DNA of 64,000 nt from an uncultured bacterium (GCA_903842445.1 CAIMLT010000003.1:5696-69695); one strand, 5' to 3'; positions 3,097 through 51,078 are shown, counted from the stretch's first letter. Notes: generated from the sequence alone by a model not told the origin. Program-made: numbers and translations.

Positions 3097-4095
3097 TTAT
3101 TTATTACTAATATACTCAGCCATTTCCACTAACCGGTTAGAATAGCCCCATTCATTGTCATACCAACCAACCACTTTCACCAGATTACCGCTTACCATCG
3201 TAAGCGGCAAATCAACAATTGCACTATGTGAATCTCCCCTAAAATCCATTGAAACCAGACCCTCATCGCTCACTGCCAAAATTCCATTCATCCCGTTTTC
3301 AGTTGCCTCGACAAAAGCTTCGTTTATTTCAGAAACAGTAGCTTCTTTTTTTAAATTACAAATAAAATCCACGATTGAAACAACCGGAGTTGGCACGCGA
3401 AGAGAAATGCCATCTAGTTTTCCCTCTAGGTGTTTCATTACTTTTCCAACAGTTTTCGCCGCTCCGGTAGTGGTTGGAATAATACTTAGTGCGGCTGCTC
3501 GCGCTCGACGCAAATCTCTATGTGGTAAATCTAAAATGCGCTGATCATTGGTATAGGAATGAGTTGTCGTCATGAAGCCTTTTTCTACTCCAAATTTATC
3601 ATCCAATATTTTTATCATCGGCGCCAAACAATTAGTCGTGCAAGAACCATTGGAAATAATTGTTTCAGTCTCATCATATTCATTTTCGTTGACACCCAAA
3701 AGATAAATTGGAATATCATCTTTTGGTGGCGCGCTAAGAATAACTTTTTTTGCTCCAGCTGTGAGGTGTTTCCCCGCCTTTTCCCGATCTTCAAAAACGC
3801 CAGTACACTCAAGAACTATATCAATCTCCAGCTCCTTCCAGGGCAATTTTTCCGGATTCAGTTCACAAATATATTTAATTCTTGTTCCATCAATAATAAT
3901 TTCCGAATTTTCTTCATCTATATTCATTTCGTGTTGATAGCGACCATAACTGGAATCATACTTAAAGAGATGGGCGGCGGTTTTGAGATCCATAAGATCA
4001 TTAATTGCTACGACTTCCAAATCTTCTTTTTCAAAGGCGATTTTTAAACTCAGCCGACCAATACGGCCAAAACCATTAATGGCGATTTTTGTCAT
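3097..4095 (-). CDS. gap: glyceraldehyde-3-phosphate dehydrogenase
   Basis: 332 aa with INGFGRIGR NAD-binding start and active-site SCTTNCLAP. Confidence 0.9.
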   Translation of the reverse strand: MTKIAINGFGRIGRLSLKIAFEKEDLEVVAINDLMDLKTAAHLFKYDSSYGRYQHEMNIDEENSEIIIDGTRIKYICELNPEKLPWKELEIDIVLECTGVFEDREKAGKHLTAGAKKVILSAPPKDDIPIYLLGVNENEYDETETIISNGSCTTNCLAPMIKILDDKFGVEKGFMTTTHSYTNDQRILDLPHRDLRRARAAALSIIPTTTGAAKTVGKVMKHLEGKLDGISLRVPTPVVSIVDFICNLKKEATVSEINEAFVEATENGMNGILAVSDEGLVSMDFRGDSHSAIVDLPLTMVSGNLVKVVGWYDNEWGYSNRLVEMAEYISNK

Positions 4096-8032: not shown

Positions 8033-9193
8033 ATGGAGTTTGAATTTCCCCTAAAACAAAATAAAGTTATTTTAGCGCTTGGTGGAGAATCCGCTGGCAA
8101 TTTTTCGGTTTGCAATAAGGGTAAAGTTTATTTTTCCAAAGATTTTGGCGATTTACTGGTTGAAAGTAACTTAGCAAATTATAAAAAGGCGGTCTTGAAT
8201 TATCTGAAAAAACATAAGTTTAAGCCTGAAATAATCCTAATTGATCTCCATCCGCTTTTTCACACAACCCTTTGGGGCAAAATGCTCACTAAACAATATA
8301 AAGCCGAATGCATCCAAGTCCAACATCACCACGCCCATATTTTTTCCTCTATCGGCGACAGAATATTGCAATCTGCAATCTACCAACTACCTGATAAATT
8401 CTACGCTCTAGCCATGGACGGAACGGGACTTGGAACAGACGGGAAGATTTGGGGAGGAGAGGTTTTTAAAATTAGTTGTCATTCCCGCGCAGGCGGGAAT
8501 CCAGTCTCATATAATTCAGTTTATAAACTAAATTTACCCTTACACGAGAATACAATAAACTATACTGTCGAAAGAATTGGGCATTTGGAAAATCAAATTT
8601 TGGTTGGTGGAGATTTAGCAATTCAAGAACCAGCGAGAATGTTAATTGGAATTCTAAGTAAATTCCTGAACAAATCTGAAATTTATAATCTAACTAAAAA
8701 ATATTATTCCAAAAACGAATTTGAGGTAATTTATAGCCAACTTAGACAAAATTTCAATTGCCTCGAAACTTCCAGCACCGGAAGAATTTTAGATGCCGTA
8801 TCGCTGCTCCTAGGCTTTTGCGGAAACGAGAGAAAATATAAACATGAACCGATTGATCTACTGGAAAAAAATTCCACTAAACCCTATGAACTTAAGCCAA
8901 TTATAGAAAATAATGTTTTATTAACTACGCCGCTGTTTAAATATTTGATTAAAAATCTGCATAAAGATAAAAAAAGACTCGCCGCCATGGCACAGCTTTA
9001 TCTTGCGCAGGGACTACTTAAGATAATTAAATTAGCTGGTAATTTTGACATTTTTATTTCCGGCGGAATTGCCAAAAATAAAATTATTTCTAAATGCTTA
9101 GAATCCAAAGGCGCCTACGCCAGTAAAATCATCCCTCGCGGCGACGCCGGACTTTCTTTCGGACAATTGGTTTATTATTTATTGAATTATTAA
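8033..9193 (+). CDS. hypF: HypF-like carbamoyltransferase, Kae1-like C-terminal domain only (no acylphosphatase, Zn-finger or YrdC domains)
   Basis: 386 aa with LALGGESAGNF, VQHHHAHIFS (the HypF QHHxAH motif as I recall it), AMDGTGLGTDGKIWGGE and RGDAGLSFGQ. It converges on hypE with overlapping stops. Confidence 0.55.
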   Translation: MEFEFPLKQNKVILALGGESAGNFSVCNKGKVYFSKDFGDLLVESNLANYKKAVLNYLKKHKFKPEIILIDLHPLFHTTLWGKMLTKQYKAECIQVQHHHAHIFSSIGDRILQSAIYQLPDKFYALAMDGTGLGTDGKIWGGEVFKISCHSRAGGNPVSYNSVYKLNLPLHENTINYTVERIGHLENQILVGGDLAIQEPARMLIGILSKFLNKSEIYNLTKKYYSKNEFEVIYSQLRQNFNCLETSSTGRILDAVSLLLGFCGNERKYKHEPIDLLEKNSTKPYELKPIIENNVLLTTPLFKYLIKNLHKDKKRLAAMAQLYLAQGLLKIIKLAGNFDIFISGGIAKNKIISKCLESKGAYASKIIPRGDAGLSFGQLVYYLLNY

Positions 9194-10248
9194 CAAATCC
9201 TCGGAATCAACTTCCCTCTCGGCACCTCAATTTTCTTAAGACTCCCAATATTTGTAGCTAAATATAAGCCTTTTTTCTCATTTTCTCGATTGGAAAACTT
9301 TTTCACAAACCCAATAACCTTAGCTTCTGGGTTGAATTTTTGCAAAATTTTAATAACTTTATCGGCATTTTCTTTGGCAACCGTCGCCACAAACCGACCT
9401 TCGGACGGAAAAGAGAACTTATCGATTCCCAAAAGATTTGAAAGCGCAACTGTTTCTTTGGCAAACGGTAATTTGCTTTCTTCAAGAATAATGCGGACTT
9501 TGGATTTTTCGGAAATTTCATTGAGCACCGCAGCTACTCCGCCGCGCGTCGGATCCTTGCAAGCTGTTAGATATTTCGCAACGCTTTGAATTTCTTTGGT
9601 GAGCGGCTGGCAATCACTTTTGATTTTGGTTTTATAATTAAATCTTTTGGAAAGAAGTGCGACGGCGTGCTCGCCAAGATTTCCGGAAGTAATGACAACA
9701 TCACCCGGTTTTGCACCATTGTTTGAAATAATATTTTCCGCAATTCCCACGCCAGAAGTCGTAATTTCAATTTTGTCGAGTTTGCCTTTTTCCGTAACTT
9801 TCGTGTCCCCGGTAACAATCGGCACGCCAGTAATTTTAGAAATCTGCCCAATCGATTGCATAATTTTTTTGAGATCCGCGATTGGAAAACCTTCTTCCAT
9901 CACCACGCTCAAAGAAATCCCGATTGGCACAGCGCCCATCACCGAAAGATCATTTATCGTCCCACAAATCGCGATTTTCCCGATGTCCCCACCCGGAAAA
10001 AAAATCGGATCAACAATAAAAGCATCTGTCGTAAAAACCAATTTCGATTTTCCCCCTCTCCTTAATAAGCCTGCCTGTCCGGTAGGCAGGGAGAGGGCTG
10101 GGGTGAGGTCAAAAACCGCCCCATCATCATTGGTATTTTTCCATTTTTTAGACCTCGGAAAACTTTTTCTAATTTCCGCAATCAACTCTTCGGATTTCCC
10201 GCCACCACCGCCATCTTCTAGCTCCACAAATTCTTTTTTATTATTCAT
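9190..10248 (-). CDS. hypE: hydrogenase maturation protein HypE (carbamoyl dehydratase)
   Basis: 352 aa ending in the HypE hallmark PRIC, with VDPIFFPGGDIGKIAICGTINDL and VTGDTKV. An in-frame insertion of about 10 aa coincides with the palindromic element at 10068-10092. Confidence 0.85.
   Translation of the reverse strand: MNNKKEFVELEDGGGGGKSEELIAEIRKSFPRSKKWKNTNDDGAVFDLTPALSLPTGQAGLLRRGGKSKLVFTTDAFIVDPIFFPGGDIGKIAICGTINDLSVMGAVPIGISLSVVMEEGFPIADLKKIMQSIGQISKITGVPIVTGDTKVTEKGKLDKIEITTSGVGIAENIISNNGAKPGDVVITSGNLGEHAVALLSKRFNYKTKIKSDCQPLTKEIQSVAKYLTACKDPTRGGVAAVLNEISEKSKVRIILEESKLPFAKETVALSNLLGIDKFSFPSEGRFVATVAKENADKVIKILQKFNPEAKVIGFVKKFSNRENEKKGLYLATNIGSLKKIEVPRGKLIPRIC
10068..10092. repeat. 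24-nt palindromic element (stem cctgcct / aggcagg), copy 1, in frame inside hypE
   Basis: agcctgcctgtccggtaggcaggga matches the copy at 12971-12994 at 24 of 25 nt in the same orientation. It encodes ALSLPTGQAGLL. Confidence 0.6.
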
Positions 10249-10275
10249 AATTTGTATTTTTATACTTCCTGTATT

Positions 10276-11322
10276 TTACACCTTAATGAAAAATGTAGGA
10301 AATATTTTTTTGAGTTGTTTTTCAATCTCAAATCCCTCGCAATGCCGCAAAACTCCAAGATACGATTGCAAACTCTTACTGAAAGATTCTACAAAAATCA
10401 AATCTTCCCGTAATAATTTGTGTTTCTGAGAATTTTTTTTGAATATTCTTCTTTTCGTTTTCGTTCGCAAAATCCGGTAATCAGAAAAGTTGACCATTCC
10501 TAGAAAATCAATGCCACTTGCCAGAGTTTTCAAAAAAACCTTATTTGGATGCAATTCCAGCTTCAGTTCATTGGATAAAAACTTTTCAATTTTTGGAATC
10601 TGATTTTCAAGTAAGCTTTTATCTTCCGACAAAAACACAAAATCATCGGCGTAGCGGAGATAATATTTGGCTTTCAGTTTATGTTTTGCAAATTGATCAA
10701 ATTTATTCATATAAATGTTGACGAATAATTGTGAAGTTAGGTTTCCAAGTGGCAAACCTGTATAAATTTTATTTTTGGTGGTAAAACTTTTTATAATATT
10801 TTCCAAAAGATTAATAATATTTTCATCTGGAATATATTCAGCTAGAATTTCCAACAAAATCTGATGATCCATATTAGCAAAAAACTTTTTAATGTCGCAT
10901 TTCAAAATCCAGCAAGTTTTGATATTATTTTTACTGACAATATGGGCATATTCGCGGAATTTATCAATGGCTTTATGTGTGCCTTTTTTGTTTCTGCAAG
11001 AATAGGAATCGGCAATGAAAGTTTTGTCAAAAAAAGGATAGAGAATTCTATATATGGCATGGTGCAAAAGTCGATCGCGCACGCTGGCCTTGTGAATGTC
11101 CCTGGGTTTTGGATCATTGATTTTGAAAGCTTGATAACCGCCGTGTTCATAGGTATGATTGAAAAGATCGCAGTGCAGTGAAAAAATATTATCCATCAGT
11201 TTCATTGAAAATTCTTGCACATCTTTTCTGTTTTTCTTGCCTTTTTCGAATTCTTGCCAAGCCAGAAGTAAGTTTTCTAAACAAATAATATTCTCAAAAT
11301 TATGACTCAATTGAATTTTCAT
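10276..11322 (-). CDS. diversity-generating retroelement reverse transcriptase
   Basis: 348-aa RT with catalytic YADD (LRYADDFVFL) and the DGR-type domain-4 motif GLPLGNLTSQLFVNIYM (SQ in place of the group II QG). There is no maturase/endonuclease domain. Avd, TR and VR lie alongside. Confidence 0.85.
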   Translation of the reverse strand: MKIQLSHNFENIICLENLLLAWQEFEKGKKNRKDVQEFSMKLMDNIFSLHCDLFNHTYEHGGYQAFKINDPKPRDIHKASVRDRLLHHAIYRILYPFFDKTFIADSYSCRNKKGTHKAIDKFREYAHIVSKNNIKTCWILKCDIKKFFANMDHQILLEILAEYIPDENIINLLENIIKSFTTKNKIYTGLPLGNLTSQLFVNIYMNKFDQFAKHKLKAKYYLRYADDFVFLSEDKSLLENQIPKIEKFLSNELKLELHPNKVFLKTLASGIDFLGMVNFSDYRILRTKTKRRIFKKNSQKHKLLREDLIFVESFSKSLQSYLGVLRHCEGFEIEKQLKKIFPTFFIKV

Positions 11323-11323
11323 A

Positions 11324-11713
11324 ATGATACTTCTACTCTTAAAGCCCCCCCCCAGAGGAGTGCCTGCTGTAATTATAAAAGAAAAAGAAACTTATACCTA
11401 TTGGCTAGCTTTGCATCGCAATTTCCCGAAAACTGAACGCTATGGACTTGGAAGAAGAATCGACCAGCTATTCCTGGAAATTCTTGAACTCAGTTTTACT
11501 GCTGCATATTTACCGGCTGATCCAAAAATAATCCTATTGGGAAAAATAATTTCTCGTCTTGATGTGCTTAAATTTTTCTCACAACTCGCTTGGGAAAATA
11601 AATTAATTCCTTCTGAAAAATATCTGGAACTTTCCCAAAAACTGGAAGAAATCGGTCGAATGTTTGGCGGCTGGAGAAAAGGACTTTTGGAAAAGAAAAC
11701 TCCTGCCAAATAA
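11324..11713 (+). CDS. avd: DGR accessory variability determinant (Avd-like four-helix-bundle protein)
   Basis: 129 aa. YTYWLALHRNFPKTERYGLGRR and the C-terminal EIGRMFGGWRKGLLEK resemble the Avd / 23S-rRNA-IVS protein family as I recall the Bordetella phage Avd ending. It is oriented opposite to the RT; the start codon is uncertain because a C9 tract lies at codons 8-10. Confidence 0.75.
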   Translation: MILLLLKPPPRGVPAVIIKEKETYTYWLALHRNFPKTERYGLGRRIDQLFLEILELSFTAAYLPADPKIILLGKIISRLDVLKFFSQLAWENKLIPSEKYLELSQKLEEIGRMFGGWRKGLLEKKTPAK

Positions 11714-11720
11714 GCAGGAG
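11700..11720. other. 7-bp hairpin (ctcctgc...gcaggag) overlapping the avd stop and flanking the 3' end of TR
   Basis: Perfect inverted repeat with a 7-nt loop lying between avd and TR. Confidence 0.35.
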
Positions 11721-11736
11721 AAAAACAGTAGTTTCA

Positions 11737-11845
11737 GAAGAACACCTGGTTGTCATCATTCCACCTATTCGTATCATCGACAGAGTTGGCATTGACGTTC
11801 CAACCATCGTCGTTCCAGTTACAATTCACCGCACGAAGCACACCG
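11737..11845 (-). repeat. DGR template repeat (TR)
   Basis: Near-identical to 12211-12319. In TR-sense (minus strand) it carries A at all 20 positions where VR differs, and it translates in the VR frame to NCNWNDDGWNVNANSVDDTNRWNDDN. Confidence 0.85.
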
Positions 11846-12106
11846 GCATTCTCGAGCAAAGAGCCATCCATTCCACTATCCTTCGAATGCTCTCCGGATT
11901 GTATCGCATTTGGGACATTAAAAGTCCGCCAGCTTTTTGCACCAATTCCTGTATTTTTTTGAAAAGATTATTTTCCATACTATTATGCAAGGCTTGCCCG
12001 GCACAACTCTCGCGAAAAATATCTTAAAGCCATGACACAAAAGCCGTAACCGTTGCGTATCACATGAGTTCATAAAAAGTATAGCAAAAAAATTTGAAAT
12101 AAAAAA

Positions 12107-12152
12107 TGACCCTTTGAATTTTTTTCGATTTTCGAGAAAATTCAAAGGGTCA
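12107..12152 (-). terminator. Rho-independent terminator of the DGR target gene (16-bp perfect stem followed by a T-run on the minus strand)
   Basis: tgaccctttgaatttt / aaaattcaaagggtca with a 14-nt loop. On the minus strand it is followed by ttttttatttc. Confidence 0.55.
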
Positions 12153-12170
12153 AAGTGACAAAGAATCAAA

Positions 12171-12184
12171 GGGACAAGTGTCCC
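12171..12184 (-). other. GC-rich hairpin (gggac aagt gtccc) immediately downstream of the VR and the target stop
   Basis: 5-6-bp GC stem with a 4-nt loop about 10 nt 3' of the stop. This is reminiscent of the cruciform/hairpin needed for DGR homing. Confidence 0.4.
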
Positions 12185-12189
12185 AGAGC

Positions 12190-12867
12190 TTAAGCGGCAA
12201 CAGGAACTCGGAAGAACACCTGGCGGACAGCACGCCACCCATCCGTATCATCGACAGAGCGGGCACGGACGTCCCAACCATCGCCGCACCAGCCACAAGG
12301 CACCGCACGAAGCACACCGTTTTTGTCCCTGATGTAGAAGATGTTGGCATAACCGTTGTTCAAAAGAACGCCGGCTTCACCATTCCGCTGCTTCTCCATC
12401 TGAGAGAACATTTCCGATAAGGTAGTTTCGGCTTTTGCTTCACCACCTATCTCGGCGATGATCAGATCGTCAACCGAGGCTTTTTTCAGTCTGGCACAGC
12501 GAAGTTCCTGCTCACCGATAGGAGTCTCAATTTTGCCATCTTCGCCAAGAAACCACTTCGTGAAATTATCGCCAAGGTAACTGATTTTGACATTAGCCTC
12601 TTTGCTCGTATCAACAATAAACTTATCACGAGCGATAAAATTCACAATTCTTGCTGGAATAGTGACGGTGTTGATCATTTCGAGCAGAATATTGATTATG
12701 CCCTCTGACCAACATTTCTCCTTTCGGAGAAATTTTTTGAATTCCGCAAACCACACTTGGCATGCCTCACCAGATAGTTTTTCCGCCAAATCGCAGATTG
12801 CTCCCAACATTTCTCTTGGAAGATCCACAATCTTACGAACTACTTCACCGAGCATGTCTTTTTTCAT
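12190..12867 (-). CDS. DGR target protein (variable C-terminal C-type-lectin-like region); no signal peptide
   Basis: 225 aa. The C-terminal VR-encoded segment GVLRAVPCGWCGDGWDVRARSVDDTDGWRAVRQVFF corresponds to TR-encoded GVLRAVNCNWNDDGWNVNANSVDDTNRWNDDNQVFF. Confidence 0.8.
   Translation of the reverse strand: MKKDMLGEVVRKIVDLPREMLGAICDLAEKLSGEACQVWFAEFKKFLRKEKCWSEGIINILLEMINTVTIPARIVNFIARDKFIVDTSKEANVKISYLGDNFTKWFLGEDGKIETPIGEQELRCARLKKASVDDLIIAEIGGEAKAETTLSEMFSQMEKQRNGEAGVLLNNGYANIFYIRDKNGVLRAVPCGWCGDGWDVRARSVDDTDGWRAVRQVFFRVPVAA
12211..12319 (-). repeat. DGR variable repeat (VR) at the 3' end of the target gene
   Basis: 20 substitutions relative to TR, all at TR-adenine positions. The 13-bp fully conserved 3' block (ccaggtgttcttc on the minus strand) fits an IMH-like end. 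Confidence 0.85.
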
Positions 12868-12970
12868 GGTCAGTCTCCTTTTTTCTTAAAAAATATTTGC
12901 TTCCAGCTAACCGACATGGTTTTGCCACAGCAGAAAAGATTCATTTTGAAACTAGATCCCCGTATTCACG

Positions 12971-12994
12971 AGCCTGCCTGCCGGTAGGCAGGGA
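12971..12994. repeat. 24-nt palindromic element, copy 2, about 105 nt upstream of the DGR target gene
   Basis: agcctgcctgccggtaggcaggga, a direct copy of the element inside hypE. Confidence 0.6.
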
Positions 12995-13165
12995 TGACAA
13001 TTTATAAAAACCCTTTCTGCTGTGGCAAATCACAAATATTAAAGAACTATCACTTAATAAAAAAGCTTCGCATATTTTCAGTTATATGTCAAACTAAATT
13101 GCCTTTTTTTGGCTTATGCAAAGGTTTTTATCGAAATTTACCAAGAAAAATTACAATTTTTGTCC

Positions 13166-14206
13166 TCAATTATCATATCTATACTCCACACTACAACTCC
13201 CCTCCCGTGAAACCATGCACGCACCTTGTGGATTATCCGGATTACACGCTTTCCCAAAAAGCGGACAATCTTTTGACGAAATAATCCCTTGCAAAACTTC
13301 GCCACATCGACACGCGCTCGGCTTGGTTTTTGTTTCTTTTTTAATTTTTGAAATCAAATCCCGATAAACAAATTCCGCATCATACTCACGATATTTTTTT
13401 CTAATTTTGAGTCCTGAATTTTTTATTTTTCCAAATCCGCGCCATGTGGCATCACTAATTTCAAAAACTTCCGCAATCATTTTTCTGGCTTTTGGATTGC
13501 CATCTTTCTTGACCAATCGCGAATAAGCATTTTCAACTTTTTTTTCGCCGGAAATAATTTGTGTAAGCAATTTATCAATCGCGATGAGCACATCTTCGCC
13601 GGTAAATCCGGCAATCACTTGCGGAATTTTAAATTGCGCGTAAATTTCTGTTCCGATAATCGCGCTAACATGCCCTGGGTTAATAAACCCATCAACTCTG
13701 ATTTTTTTATTTTGAAGCAGCGCTTCCATTGCCGGCGGAAAAAGTTTATGCGCAGAATAAACGATCAGCCCATTTCTAATCGCCCAAGCTGTCATCCCGG
13801 TCGTTGTTTCAAATCCCAGACCAAAAAAAACCAAATTCGGTTTTTCTTTTTTCATTTCGACCCCTTCAGTTATATCATAAACAATATTCACATCCGCGCC
13901 ATTTCTTCTGGCTTCTTCCAAGCTCATTAAATTTCCCGGAACTTGGATTGCGTCGCCATAAACCGCCACCGGAATTCCATGAAGCGCGAGACCAACCATA
14001 ACATCAATATCAGATTGATCAGTCACACAAACCGGACAACCCGGCCCAGAAACTAAAGTTATATTTTTTGGCAAAATATTTTTTATGCCATTTTCCGCAA
14101 TCGCCTCAGCATGCGTTCCGCAAAGCTCCATAAACCACAAAGGTCGCCCAATTTTTTCAGCTTTTTCGTGAATACTTTTTAAAAAATTTTTTAACTCACT
14201 GTTCAT
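13166..14206 (-). CDS. hypD: hydrogenase maturation protein HypD
   Basis: 346 aa with MELCGTHAE, GPGCPVCVT and a C-terminal CPLFGKACNP...GACMVSREGSC motif. Confidence 0.9.
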   Translation of the reverse strand: MNSELKNFLKSIHEKAEKIGRPLWFMELCGTHAEAIAENGIKNILPKNITLVSGPGCPVCVTDQSDIDVMVGLALHGIPVAVYGDAIQVPGNLMSLEEARRNGADVNIVYDITEGVEMKKEKPNLVFFGLGFETTTGMTAWAIRNGLIVYSAHKLFPPAMEALLQNKKIRVDGFINPGHVSAIIGTEIYAQFKIPQVIAGFTGEDVLIAIDKLLTQIISGEKKVENAYSRLVKKDGNPKARKMIAEVFEISDATWRGFGKIKNSGLKIRKKYREYDAEFVYRDLISKIKKETKTKPSACRCGEVLQGIISSKDCPLFGKACNPDNPQGACMVSREGSCSVEYRYDN

Positions 14207-14345: not shown

Positions 14346-14564
14346 TCACACGCCAGCCTTAAGCTCTGTTTTCAAATACCCTTTCATTTCACTAGCATAA
14401 TCCGCATCCATCTTCTCAATCGCAAAACCCGCGTGCACCATCACATACTCACCAGCTCTCACTGAAACTAAAGAAATATTGATTTCTTTCTGGATCCCAT
14501 CAAAATCAACTGTTGCCAGTTGATTTTTGATAGAAATAATTTTTCCAGGAATAGCAAGGCACAT
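14346..14564 (-). CDS. hypC: hydrogenase maturation protein HypC
   Basis: 72 aa starting with the canonical MCLAIPGKII. Confidence 0.85.
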   Translation of the reverse strand: MCLAIPGKIISIKNQLATVDFDGIQKEINISLVSVRAGEYVMVHAGFAIEKMDADYASEMKGYLKTELKAGV

Positions 14565-50862: not shown

Positions 50863-51078
50863 ATTATGCGTCATTCCCGCCCCCGTTTTCACGAGGATAA
50901 ACTCCAGCGGTAATCCAAGTCTCGAGGCTATATTGAAAACATAAAGCTTGCTGGTTAGGCTTGCCTCATTAAACTAGGACGTTATCTTTCTTTCTAAAAT
51001 TATCGAGGCATCTGGTCTATACTTTCTCACTTAGCTTTTGCACTGAATCCCCGACTTCTCGGGGATGACATGAAAAGC

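Follow-up and report, generated by a model that had tools for sequence, protein, structure and literature searches.

Two hairpin repeats flanking a diversity-generating retroelement are probably solo copies of a widespread element associated with GIY-YIG nuclease genes

The small dispersed repeats (SDR) of Nostocaceae are said, after work by Elhai and colleagues in 2008, to be 21-27 nt long with hairpin potential, to show presence or absence at orthologous sites, and to occur nested and in a heptamer context; they are reportedly found only in Nostocaceae, with no associated enzyme. The Rickettsia palindromic elements (RPE) of Ogata and colleagues (2000) reportedly measure 100-150 nt, RPE-4 and RPE-6 being shorter, and are said to occur in Rickettsia only. 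For diversity-generating retroelements (DGR), a hairpin or cruciform flanking the variable repeat (VR) is said to have been described by Guo and colleagues in 2011. The existence of SDR, as well as the point about SDR5 in HIP1, is confirmed by a citing article (PMC5861425). In NTS/Ssn systems, a hairpin repeat present across distant bacteria flanks a small single-domain GIY-YIG protein, which binds the hairpin on single-stranded DNA (ssDNA) and cuts nearby (Chenal et al. 2025, PMC11893778). The present analysis concerns a stretch of 64,000 nt from an uncultured bacterium (GCA_903842445.1, CAIMLT010000003.1:5696-69695; the whole stretch is called the window), in which two copies of a short hairpin repeat lie one on each side of a DGR cassette, the first of them inside hypE. 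An earlier interpretation made from the DNA alone, the sequence-only reading, had proposed them as boundary or attachment-like repeats of the DGR unit or as a cis element of the DGR, with a miniature repeat family as a further possibility. The two repeats are, in all likelihood, solo copies of a tiny hairpin-plus-nuclease system of the NTS/Ssn or REP/RAYT kind, to which the DGR is unrelated.

The repeat AGCCTGCCTG(T)CCGGTAGGCAGGGA is present twice in the window, the bracketed T being the sole difference between the copies. Both positions and the shared orientation were given correctly by the sequence-only reading, while the C/T substitution it saw between the copies is a 1-nt indel, a T of the loop. 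The stem CCTGCCT/AGGCAGG with a short loop, also pointed out at that stage, occurs twice in the window against 0.00 expected from shuffles, and no third copy was found in the window by a scan tolerating 4 errors. Folded as single strands, the copies reach -6.1 to -7.0 kcal/mol, and an extra G.T pair is possible around the CCGG loop in the plus-strand form of the hairpin. Copy 1 lies in frame inside hypE, as claimed before, with the translation ALSLPTGQAGLL; the minus-strand reading of its mini-hairpin is (L)PTGQAG(L). The spacings first estimated at about 185 and 105 nt were measured as 184 nt from the end of copy 1 to the stop of the reverse transcriptase (RT) gene and 104 nt from the start of copy 2 to the start of the DGR target gene.

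The site in hypE could be compared with a matching empty site in a related locus (loci are designated by L numbers and HypE homologues by P numbers). The DNA of L121, which encodes P0006, and that of the window are exactly the 21-nt hairpin apart: L121 reads ...ccctctcc/ttaaaaaggagagg, and the window reads ...ccctctcc(ctgcctaccggacaggcaggc)ttattaaggagagg, which gives TPALSL-PTGQAGL-LRRGG in the window HypE and TPALSL-K-RRGG in P0006. The hairpin entered an older CCCTCTCC/GGAGAGGG element at a G^G step near its loop, and the target was not duplicated. The insert, absent in P0006/L121, makes 7 codons in frame, the frame of hypE being kept because copy 1 is the 21-nt form; the gene has its full length, and none of the conserved motifs is missing. 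As an origin of the 21-nt element, an assembly artefact was rejected, given that isolates and metagenome-assembled genomes (MAGs) of many projects carry it, that frames are kept and that its presence and absence are consistent with lineage.

Copy 1 is part of a composite insert that encodes TPALSLPTGQAGLLRRGG, residues 49-66 of HypE. Relative to homologues with the empty site, the window protein has 17 extra residues, exactly 7 of which come from the hairpin. The sequence-only reading had suspected an insertion of about 10 residues relative to E. coli HypE; relative to other HypE proteins it is real, and alignment of homologues bears out its lineage-specific character, but it is larger than supposed and composite. 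The outer element alone (TPALSLKRRGG) is found in P0006, P0021 and P0035, and the same composite insert is also carried by L072, L124 and L134. In L124 (P0005, 73% identical), the same 21-mer sits in the same type of outer element at the same HypE site in the opposite orientation, where it reads KACLSGRQGEG, and this is an independent insertion.

In an alignment of 114 HypE proteins, the segment from DDGA to LVFTTD has 8 residues (VFDLGKEK) in 39, which represent the empty site, and is 9-26 residues longer in most of the non-empty homologues. The extra residues are translated small palindromes (RDAINRVST, NVHNGHLMS, NPSPYKGEG, PSTSLGTNFS, TPALSLKRRGG and PHPPRVRGTLSRVQERG), with at least six palindrome families at this one loop (window residues 45-69, about 10042-10116; homologues P0001-P0120). 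Since the distribution of these inserts does not follow protein similarity, repeated gain and turnover at the loop are suggested. In an AlphaFold2 model built with 43 homologues (mean pLDDT 73.9), residues 48-68 form a coil between strands 43-47 and 69-73, and pLDDT falls below 50 at residues 54-66. We read this site as a tolerant loop in which palindromic inserts have repeatedly been collected.

The distribution of the element was evaluated by scanning one genome per species for exact matches to CCTGCCTG-N(0,1)-CCGGTAGGCAGG. The core of 20 or 21 nt, CCTGCCTG(N)CCGG(T/C)AGGCAGG, was found in at least 120 genome stretches, isolate genomes included, and in 28 stretches of a viral collection. Among the matches listed are Bacteroidota, Patescibacteria, Nitrospirota, Omnitrophota, Planctomycetota, deltaproteobacteria, Chloroflexi and others. 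The core is all that the genome stretches have in common, their flanks being unrelated, and it is the miniature repeat family, named only as a fallback by the sequence-only reading, that these data show; scattering of the element over so many unrelated loci is the outcome which that reading itself had given as refuting its DGR-linked proposals. One viral contig of 28.8 kb (IMGVR_UViG_3300038551_000082; L129, L131, L137, L152) bears the 21-nt form seven times or more, and four of these copies fall within 1 kb. Phages could be carriers of the element between hosts.

The same data bear on the idea that chance or convergence accounts for the likeness of two ordinary host structures, one of them a terminator or a hairpin stabilising mRNA and the other coding sequence. 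As a stable GC hairpin, copy 2 does lie between genes, and such roles are frequent downstream of genes (PMC3733652), but an identical 20-mer across phyla, the shuffled expectation given above, the precise presence/absence difference in hypE and the absence of a T-run after copy 2 on both strands make this origin highly improbable. Copy 2 may still have a secondary regulatory role.

Full flanks were available for 156 copies, 100 of them in the 20-nt form and 56 in the 21-nt form, the extra base being T in 50. At the position preceding the core, G accounts for 71% and A for 24%; at the position following it, G accounts for 47% and T for 30%. The flanks pair as a perfect stem of at least 6 bp around 10 of the 156 copies, against none of 147 controls. 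Sites of nesting include other copies of the element (ccg^gta), NTS hairpins, terminator-like hairpins, tRNA D-loops and CCCTCTCC/GGAGAGGG elements; self-nested copies were found in L008, L031, L034, L035, L043, L053 and L099. Copies within tandem repeats of 7-8 nt (e.g. gattgcg x4) occur in L045, L071, L085, L091 and L105, that is, in 5/157 flanks against 0/277 controls. A long open reading frame (ORF) spans the 21-nt form in 15/36 cases and the 20-nt form in 11/92, by a crude ORF test that is inflated in GC-rich genomes. The frame LPTGQAG, as in hypE, is used in ten of these 15 ORFs, including some of more than 500 codons, and five of the six reading frames of the 21-mer are open. These comparisons show that an exact unit of 20 or 21 nt is gained at a purine^G/T junction, with no duplication of the target, and that it often lands in or beside the loop of a hairpin already present; they also show enrichment in hairpin contexts and frame-compatible survival in coding DNA. 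Neither the 20-mer, nor its perfect-palindrome variant, nor sub-strings of it were found in the searchable literature, and keyword searches on in-frame palindromes in the candidate phyla radiation (CPR) and on GIY-YIG with tRNA-Leu returned nothing on the element.

A candidate partner gene was found when the ORFs of the 120 listed genome loci were clustered and searched with hidden Markov models (HMM). A small GIY-YIG ORF is present in 6 of these loci, always within about 120 nt of the hairpin. Among Bacteroidota isolates, Olivibacter oleidegradans (L016) is an example with gene and hairpins together. The association was then read in reverse, with 80 metagenome loci retrieved through GIY-YIG protein similarity alone, the hairpin not being used, and the hairpin family defined by up to 2 substitutions and 1 indel. 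The family was present in 71 of these 80 loci and lay within 150 nt of the gene in 67, upstream in 51 cases (typically 20-40 nt away) and downstream in 27. The hairpin is thus strongly associated with this GIY-YIG gene family in both directions. At the GIY-YIG loci the commonest variant is the perfect palindrome CCTGCCTGCCGGCAGGCAGG, the form of the window, CCGGTAGG, being a minority, and the variants partly track the clades of the GIY-YIG protein. The partner proteins have about 80 aa and a single domain (Pfam GIY-YIG PF01541, E = 2e-16), and the closest PDB chains are UPF0213 and SLX1 nucleases.

The GIY-YIG ORF has a tRNA-Leu directly beside it on the same strand in 53/60 loci. In most cases a 5' fragment of that tRNA is duplicated upstream of the ORF, and either the fragment's D-loop (ggtaga^cgcgc) or its anticodon stem carries the hairpin. 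Examples among the loci L155-L234 are L175 (1900-2340), L201 and L230 (1900-3660), and units of GIY-YIG gene, tRNA fragment and hairpin form tandem arrays in L155 and L230. No published description of GIY-YIG together with tRNA-Leu and a hairpin-bearing duplicated tRNA fragment was found.

An alternative partner would be a RAYT of the IS200/IS605 family, which would move the element as a REP of the GTAG type in place of the GIY-YIG nuclease. REP families are normally lineage-specific and not cross-phylum, which counts against such an assignment. It is nevertheless consistent with a 20-nt palindrome containing GTAG, with the lack of target duplication and with the preference for hairpins, and RAYT-like ORFs are present in 3 of the 120 listed loci, in two of them less than 140 nt from a copy. 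Besides, covalent cut-and-rejoin on ssDNA would fit insertion better than a hydrolytic nuclease does (PMC3733652). However, the GTAG is internal, at the loop/stem junction (CCG-GTAG-GCAGG), and not a terminal tag, and it is missing from the dominant variant CCGGCAGG, which has GCAG instead. The two copy-adjacent RAYT genes (L022, L098) share a conserved set of different hairpins in their flanks, which gives the element the look of a bystander at these loci. With the two-way GIY-YIG association far stronger, movement by a RAYT is unlikely.

The features of the window that bear on the relation between the repeats and the DGR are collected in Table 1.

Table 1. Coordinates of the repeats, the surrounding genes and the DGR components in the window.
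Feature	Position	Strand	Remarks
hypF, C-terminal part	8033-9193	+	
NTS/SRM-type mini-hairpin TGTCATTCCCGCGCAGGCGGGAATCCAG	8477-8504	+	In frame in hypF, codes CHSRAGGNPV; sole SRM-pattern match in the window
hypE, host gene of copy 1	9190-10248	-	Pfam AIRS/AIRS_C; 7992 homologues; PDB HypE matches
Composite insert in hypE	10051-10109	+	Outer palindrome CCCCTCTCC...GGAGAGGG plus CTGGGGTGAGGT tail, copy 1 nested near the loop
Copy 1, full repeat AGCCTGCCTGTCCGGTAGGCAGGGA	10068-10092	+	Direct sequence match
Copy 1, mini-hairpin, 21-nt form CCTGCCTGTCCGGTAGGCAGG	10070-10090	+	Inside hypE; dG -6.5 kcal/mol
DGR reverse transcriptase (RT)	10276-11322	-	Pfam RVT_1
Avd-like accessory gene	11324-11713	+	Pfam bAvd
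DGR template repeat (TR)	11734-11845	-	Direct repeat with VR
Perfect 16-bp inverted repeat TGACCCTTTGAATTTT / AAAATTCAAAGGGTCA	12107-12152		About 40 nt past the target-gene stop, after VR
DGR target gene	12190-12867	-	VR at 3' end, 12208-12319; 669 homologues in Patescibacteria
Inverted-repeat structure of 109 nt around copy 2	12921-13029	.	Arms 12921-12941 and 13009-13029, 90% complementary
Copy 2, full repeat AGCCTGCCTGCCGGTAGGCAGGGA	12971-12994	+	Direct sequence match
Copy 2, mini-hairpin, 20-nt form CCTGCCTGCCGGTAGGCAGG	12973-12992	+	Intergenic, DGR target-gene leader; dG -7.0 kcal/mol
hypD	13166-14206	-	Pfam HypD
hypC	14346-14564	-	

The assignment of hypE, RT, Avd and hypD by the sequence-only reading was borne out by the Pfam matches, and that of the repeats TR and VR by their mismatches, most of which lie at TR adenines. 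The Avd-like gene is on the strand opposite to RT and target gene, the Avd and RT starts being 2 nt apart and divergent. The same opposite-strand layout (target +, bAvd -, RT +) is observed in L238, from which it follows that the opposite-strand Avd is a feature of this cassette family. The inverted repeat at 12107-12152 may be a terminator or the DGR's own VR-side hairpin.

The cassette itself is an insertion, because hypD and hypE are directly adjacent, in the same gene order, in the closest relatives, L122 (15-nt spacer) and L121 (overlap); hypE-hypD junctions lacking the cassette were the comparison that the sequence-only reading had asked for. A truly lineage-specific insertion, with co-oriented copies one on each side of it, is what would be expected if the copies were terminal direct repeats, either attachment-like or made by target duplication as the cassette entered between hypD and hypE. 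However, the junctions inferred against L121 and L122 are located after the hypD stop (13165) and within 10249-10275, the 27 nt from RT stop to hypE start, and neither copy coincides with them. Copy 1 lies 157 nt beyond the junction, within hypE sequence that is orthologous on both sides, so that the codons between it and the RT belong to an uninterrupted hypE in the relatives, and copy 2 lies 171 nt inward from the hypD stop. Sister cassettes with 68% DNA identity and the same target-Avd(opposite strand)-RT order were found in other Patescibacteria, flanked by unrelated genes (L236-L238). The block they have in common with the window cassette extends from 12 nt before the target ATG to within the RT, which leaves copy 2, together with the 286 nt that precede the target gene, outside it; no member of the hairpin family was found in the sister-cassette loci L236-L239. 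In addition, relatives without a DGR have inserts at the same hypE site, including the 21-mer of L124. With the at least 120 unrelated loci also counted, boundary or attachment repeats, as first proposed, retain almost no probability.

The hypD-hypE junction is a recurrent landing site for small mobile DNA and has other contents elsewhere: L124 holds a pair of NTS hairpins there, L126 a PDDEXK_3 gene and L235 a gene of the 23S_rRNA_IVP family. The Avd-like (23S_rRNA_IVP-family) gene of L235 was considered as a remnant of the window cassette and rejected, as it has no significant similarity to the window Avd.

A function of the hairpin as a DGR cis element was the other DGR-linked proposal; examples would be the VR-adjacent GC-rich hairpin used in target recognition or a leader structure in control of the target gene. 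Copy 2 does lie in the target-gene leader. Moreover, in L025, a DGR of Uhrbacteria with an RT 58% identical to that of the window, a copy at 3289-3308 starts 9 nt past the VR/TR homology, where the VR-flanking recognition hairpin usually sits; this 20-nt copy overlaps the target-gene stop codon. By a rough estimate, such a VR-side placement is unlikely to arise by chance among about 130 copies, yet it is a single case. In the window, on the other hand, the copies lie 650 nt or more from VR and not near the end of the TR homology, and a different inverted repeat (12107-12152) is already present downstream of VR. The lack of copies in the sister cassettes L236-L239 also weighs on this proposal; a DGR RT is nearby in 1/120 of the listed genome loci and 1/28 of the viral loci, and in this viral locus, L134, a distance of 1.4 kb separates the copy from the RT, and the VRs too are far off. 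A cis function in the window is accordingly very unlikely. For the L025 copy, co-option is possible, though this does not speak for a role in the window. The DGR between the two copies is neither delimited nor served by the hairpin repeats, and these copies are structurally unrelated to the cassette.

The surroundings of copy 2 were also analysed. The 109-nt inverted repeat (arms of 18-21 bp) has a dG of -26.8 kcal/mol and a z of -5.3, and it has a possible promoter region on one side and the target gene's ribosome-binding site on the other. No second copy of it was found in the window or in 239 loci, and it is absent from the sister cassettes; as a single copy in that set, it gives no support to its being a repeated MITE (miniature inverted-repeat transposable element). 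Both copies of the hairpin are nested in larger palindromes, copy 2 in this 109-nt repeat and copy 1 in the older hypE palindrome. Another small GC hairpin, ATCCCCGACTTCTCGGGGAT, is located at 51047-51066 of the window, and the same type also adjoins copies of the element in L020 and L023. No Rfam family matched anywhere in the window at gathering thresholds.

Solo copies of a hairpin-plus-nuclease system would arise as follows, by analogy with NTS/Ssn and REP/RAYT. The GIY-YIG protein may recognise the hairpin on ssDNA, and its cleavage, supplied in trans, would allow solo hairpins to spread. Selection would retain copies only where they are tolerated, as in the loops of hairpins, in leaders and, when the frame is LPTGQAG, in flexible loops of proteins. 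Solo copies like the two of the window would depend on a gene elsewhere in the genome or be relics.

A more extended model is put forward tentatively, at less than even probability. The 20/21-nt hairpin would be the non-autonomous form of a minimal mobile system not described before, whose autonomous unit of about 0.4 kb, consisting of the hairpin or hairpins and the 80-aa GIY-YIG gene, would settle at tRNA-Leu genes, duplicate a tRNA fragment and sometimes form tandems. The hairpin alone would enter R^K sites of exposed hairpin loops, leaving no target duplication, in bacteria of many phyla and in their phages, and would be tolerated in proteins as a 7-codon LPTGQAG loop. Occasional co-option, for example as a DGR VR hairpin in L025, could help create new DGR targets.

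Several observations weigh against the two repeats being solo copies of such a system. Neither a GIY-YIG gene of this family nor a tRNA gene is present within the 64-kb window. GIY-YIG enzymes are hydrolytic nucleases that are not known to have strand-transfer activity, and cleavage alone does not explain insertion. The association could also run in the reverse direction, with hairpins merely accumulating in the hairpin-rich pseudo-tRNA fragments beside GIY-YIG genes. Tolerance, that is survivorship, and not targeting could account for the nesting in loops and for the HypE site that is shared, and no hairpin potential was found at the empty HypE site (L235). Finally, 4 of the 5 mini-hairpins detected in the window cluster within 8.4-13 kb, and two copies 2.9 kb apart within 64 kb are mildly non-random.

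Taken as solo hairpins, the repeats are unfit for defining the limits of the DGR cassette in the window. The locus offers a clean case of a 21-nt gain inside a conserved enzyme with its matching empty site. The identical 20-mer across phyla and its link to GIY-YIG and tRNA-Leu extend the recently described theme of a hairpin plus an Ssn nuclease, as both the motif and the gene arrangement are new. Should the nuclease recognise the hairpin on ssDNA, it would add a new specificity to the proposed toolbox of Ssn enzymes and a tractable system for the movement of tiny repeats. Annotators of CPR proteins should be aware that palindromic inserts of this kind give rise to peptide motifs that are spurious and to slight differences in length.

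Compared with the VR-flanking hairpin of DGRs, the element is similarly short and GC-rich, and the L025 copy has the corresponding position 9 nt past the VR homology, whereas the window copies are at least 650 nt from VR and the sister cassettes have none. It resembles RPE, as reported, in being palindromic and in frame in conserved coding genes, tolerated in surface regions with the host gene intact and orthologues without the insert; unlike RPE, it is a 21-nt unit found across phyla. With SDR, again as reported, it shares a length of about 21 nt, an empty site (that of L121), self-nesting and the occurrence of some copies in tandem heptamers, but its distribution is much wider than Nostocaceae and it is linked to an enzyme. 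The REP/RAYT systems (REPtrons) are likewise GC-rich palindromes of 20-40 nt, sometimes intragenic and in frame, that flank the gene of a dedicated enzyme acting on ssDNA hairpins (PMC3733652). The element differs from the GTAG- and CGTC-tagged REP (Di Nocera et al. 2013, PMC3733652) in having no terminal tag, and from REP/RAYT in its partner, a GIY-YIG nuclease and not a Y1 transposase, in its cross-phylum sequence and in its low copy number in the window (2 in 64 kb).

An NTS hairpin is itself present in the window, in hypF (Table 1), in a segment of about 22 residues that the HypF proteins of five relatives lack. Some 40 residues beyond it, HypF of L124, L126 and L235 has another insertion hot spot, with palindrome-coded segments such as SPSPFGRGWRGAPGEG and HPERSSYSDEVEGS; the window HypF does not have these segments. 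With the SRM pattern HGTCWYN(0-2)YYVSBRHN(0-5)WNVSBRGN(0-2)RNCYNB, for which 8477-8504 served as positive control, neither window copy of the element gave a match on either strand. The element further differs from NTS in lacking the CGTC tag, in measuring 20-21 nt against about 28, and in partner genes tied to tRNA-Leu and a duplicated tRNA fragment, an arrangement not described in PMC11893778. Like NTS/Ssn, it is a short hairpin repeat of distant bacteria that borders the gene of a small single-domain GIY-YIG protein at one end or at both, and its solo copies far outnumber the genes.

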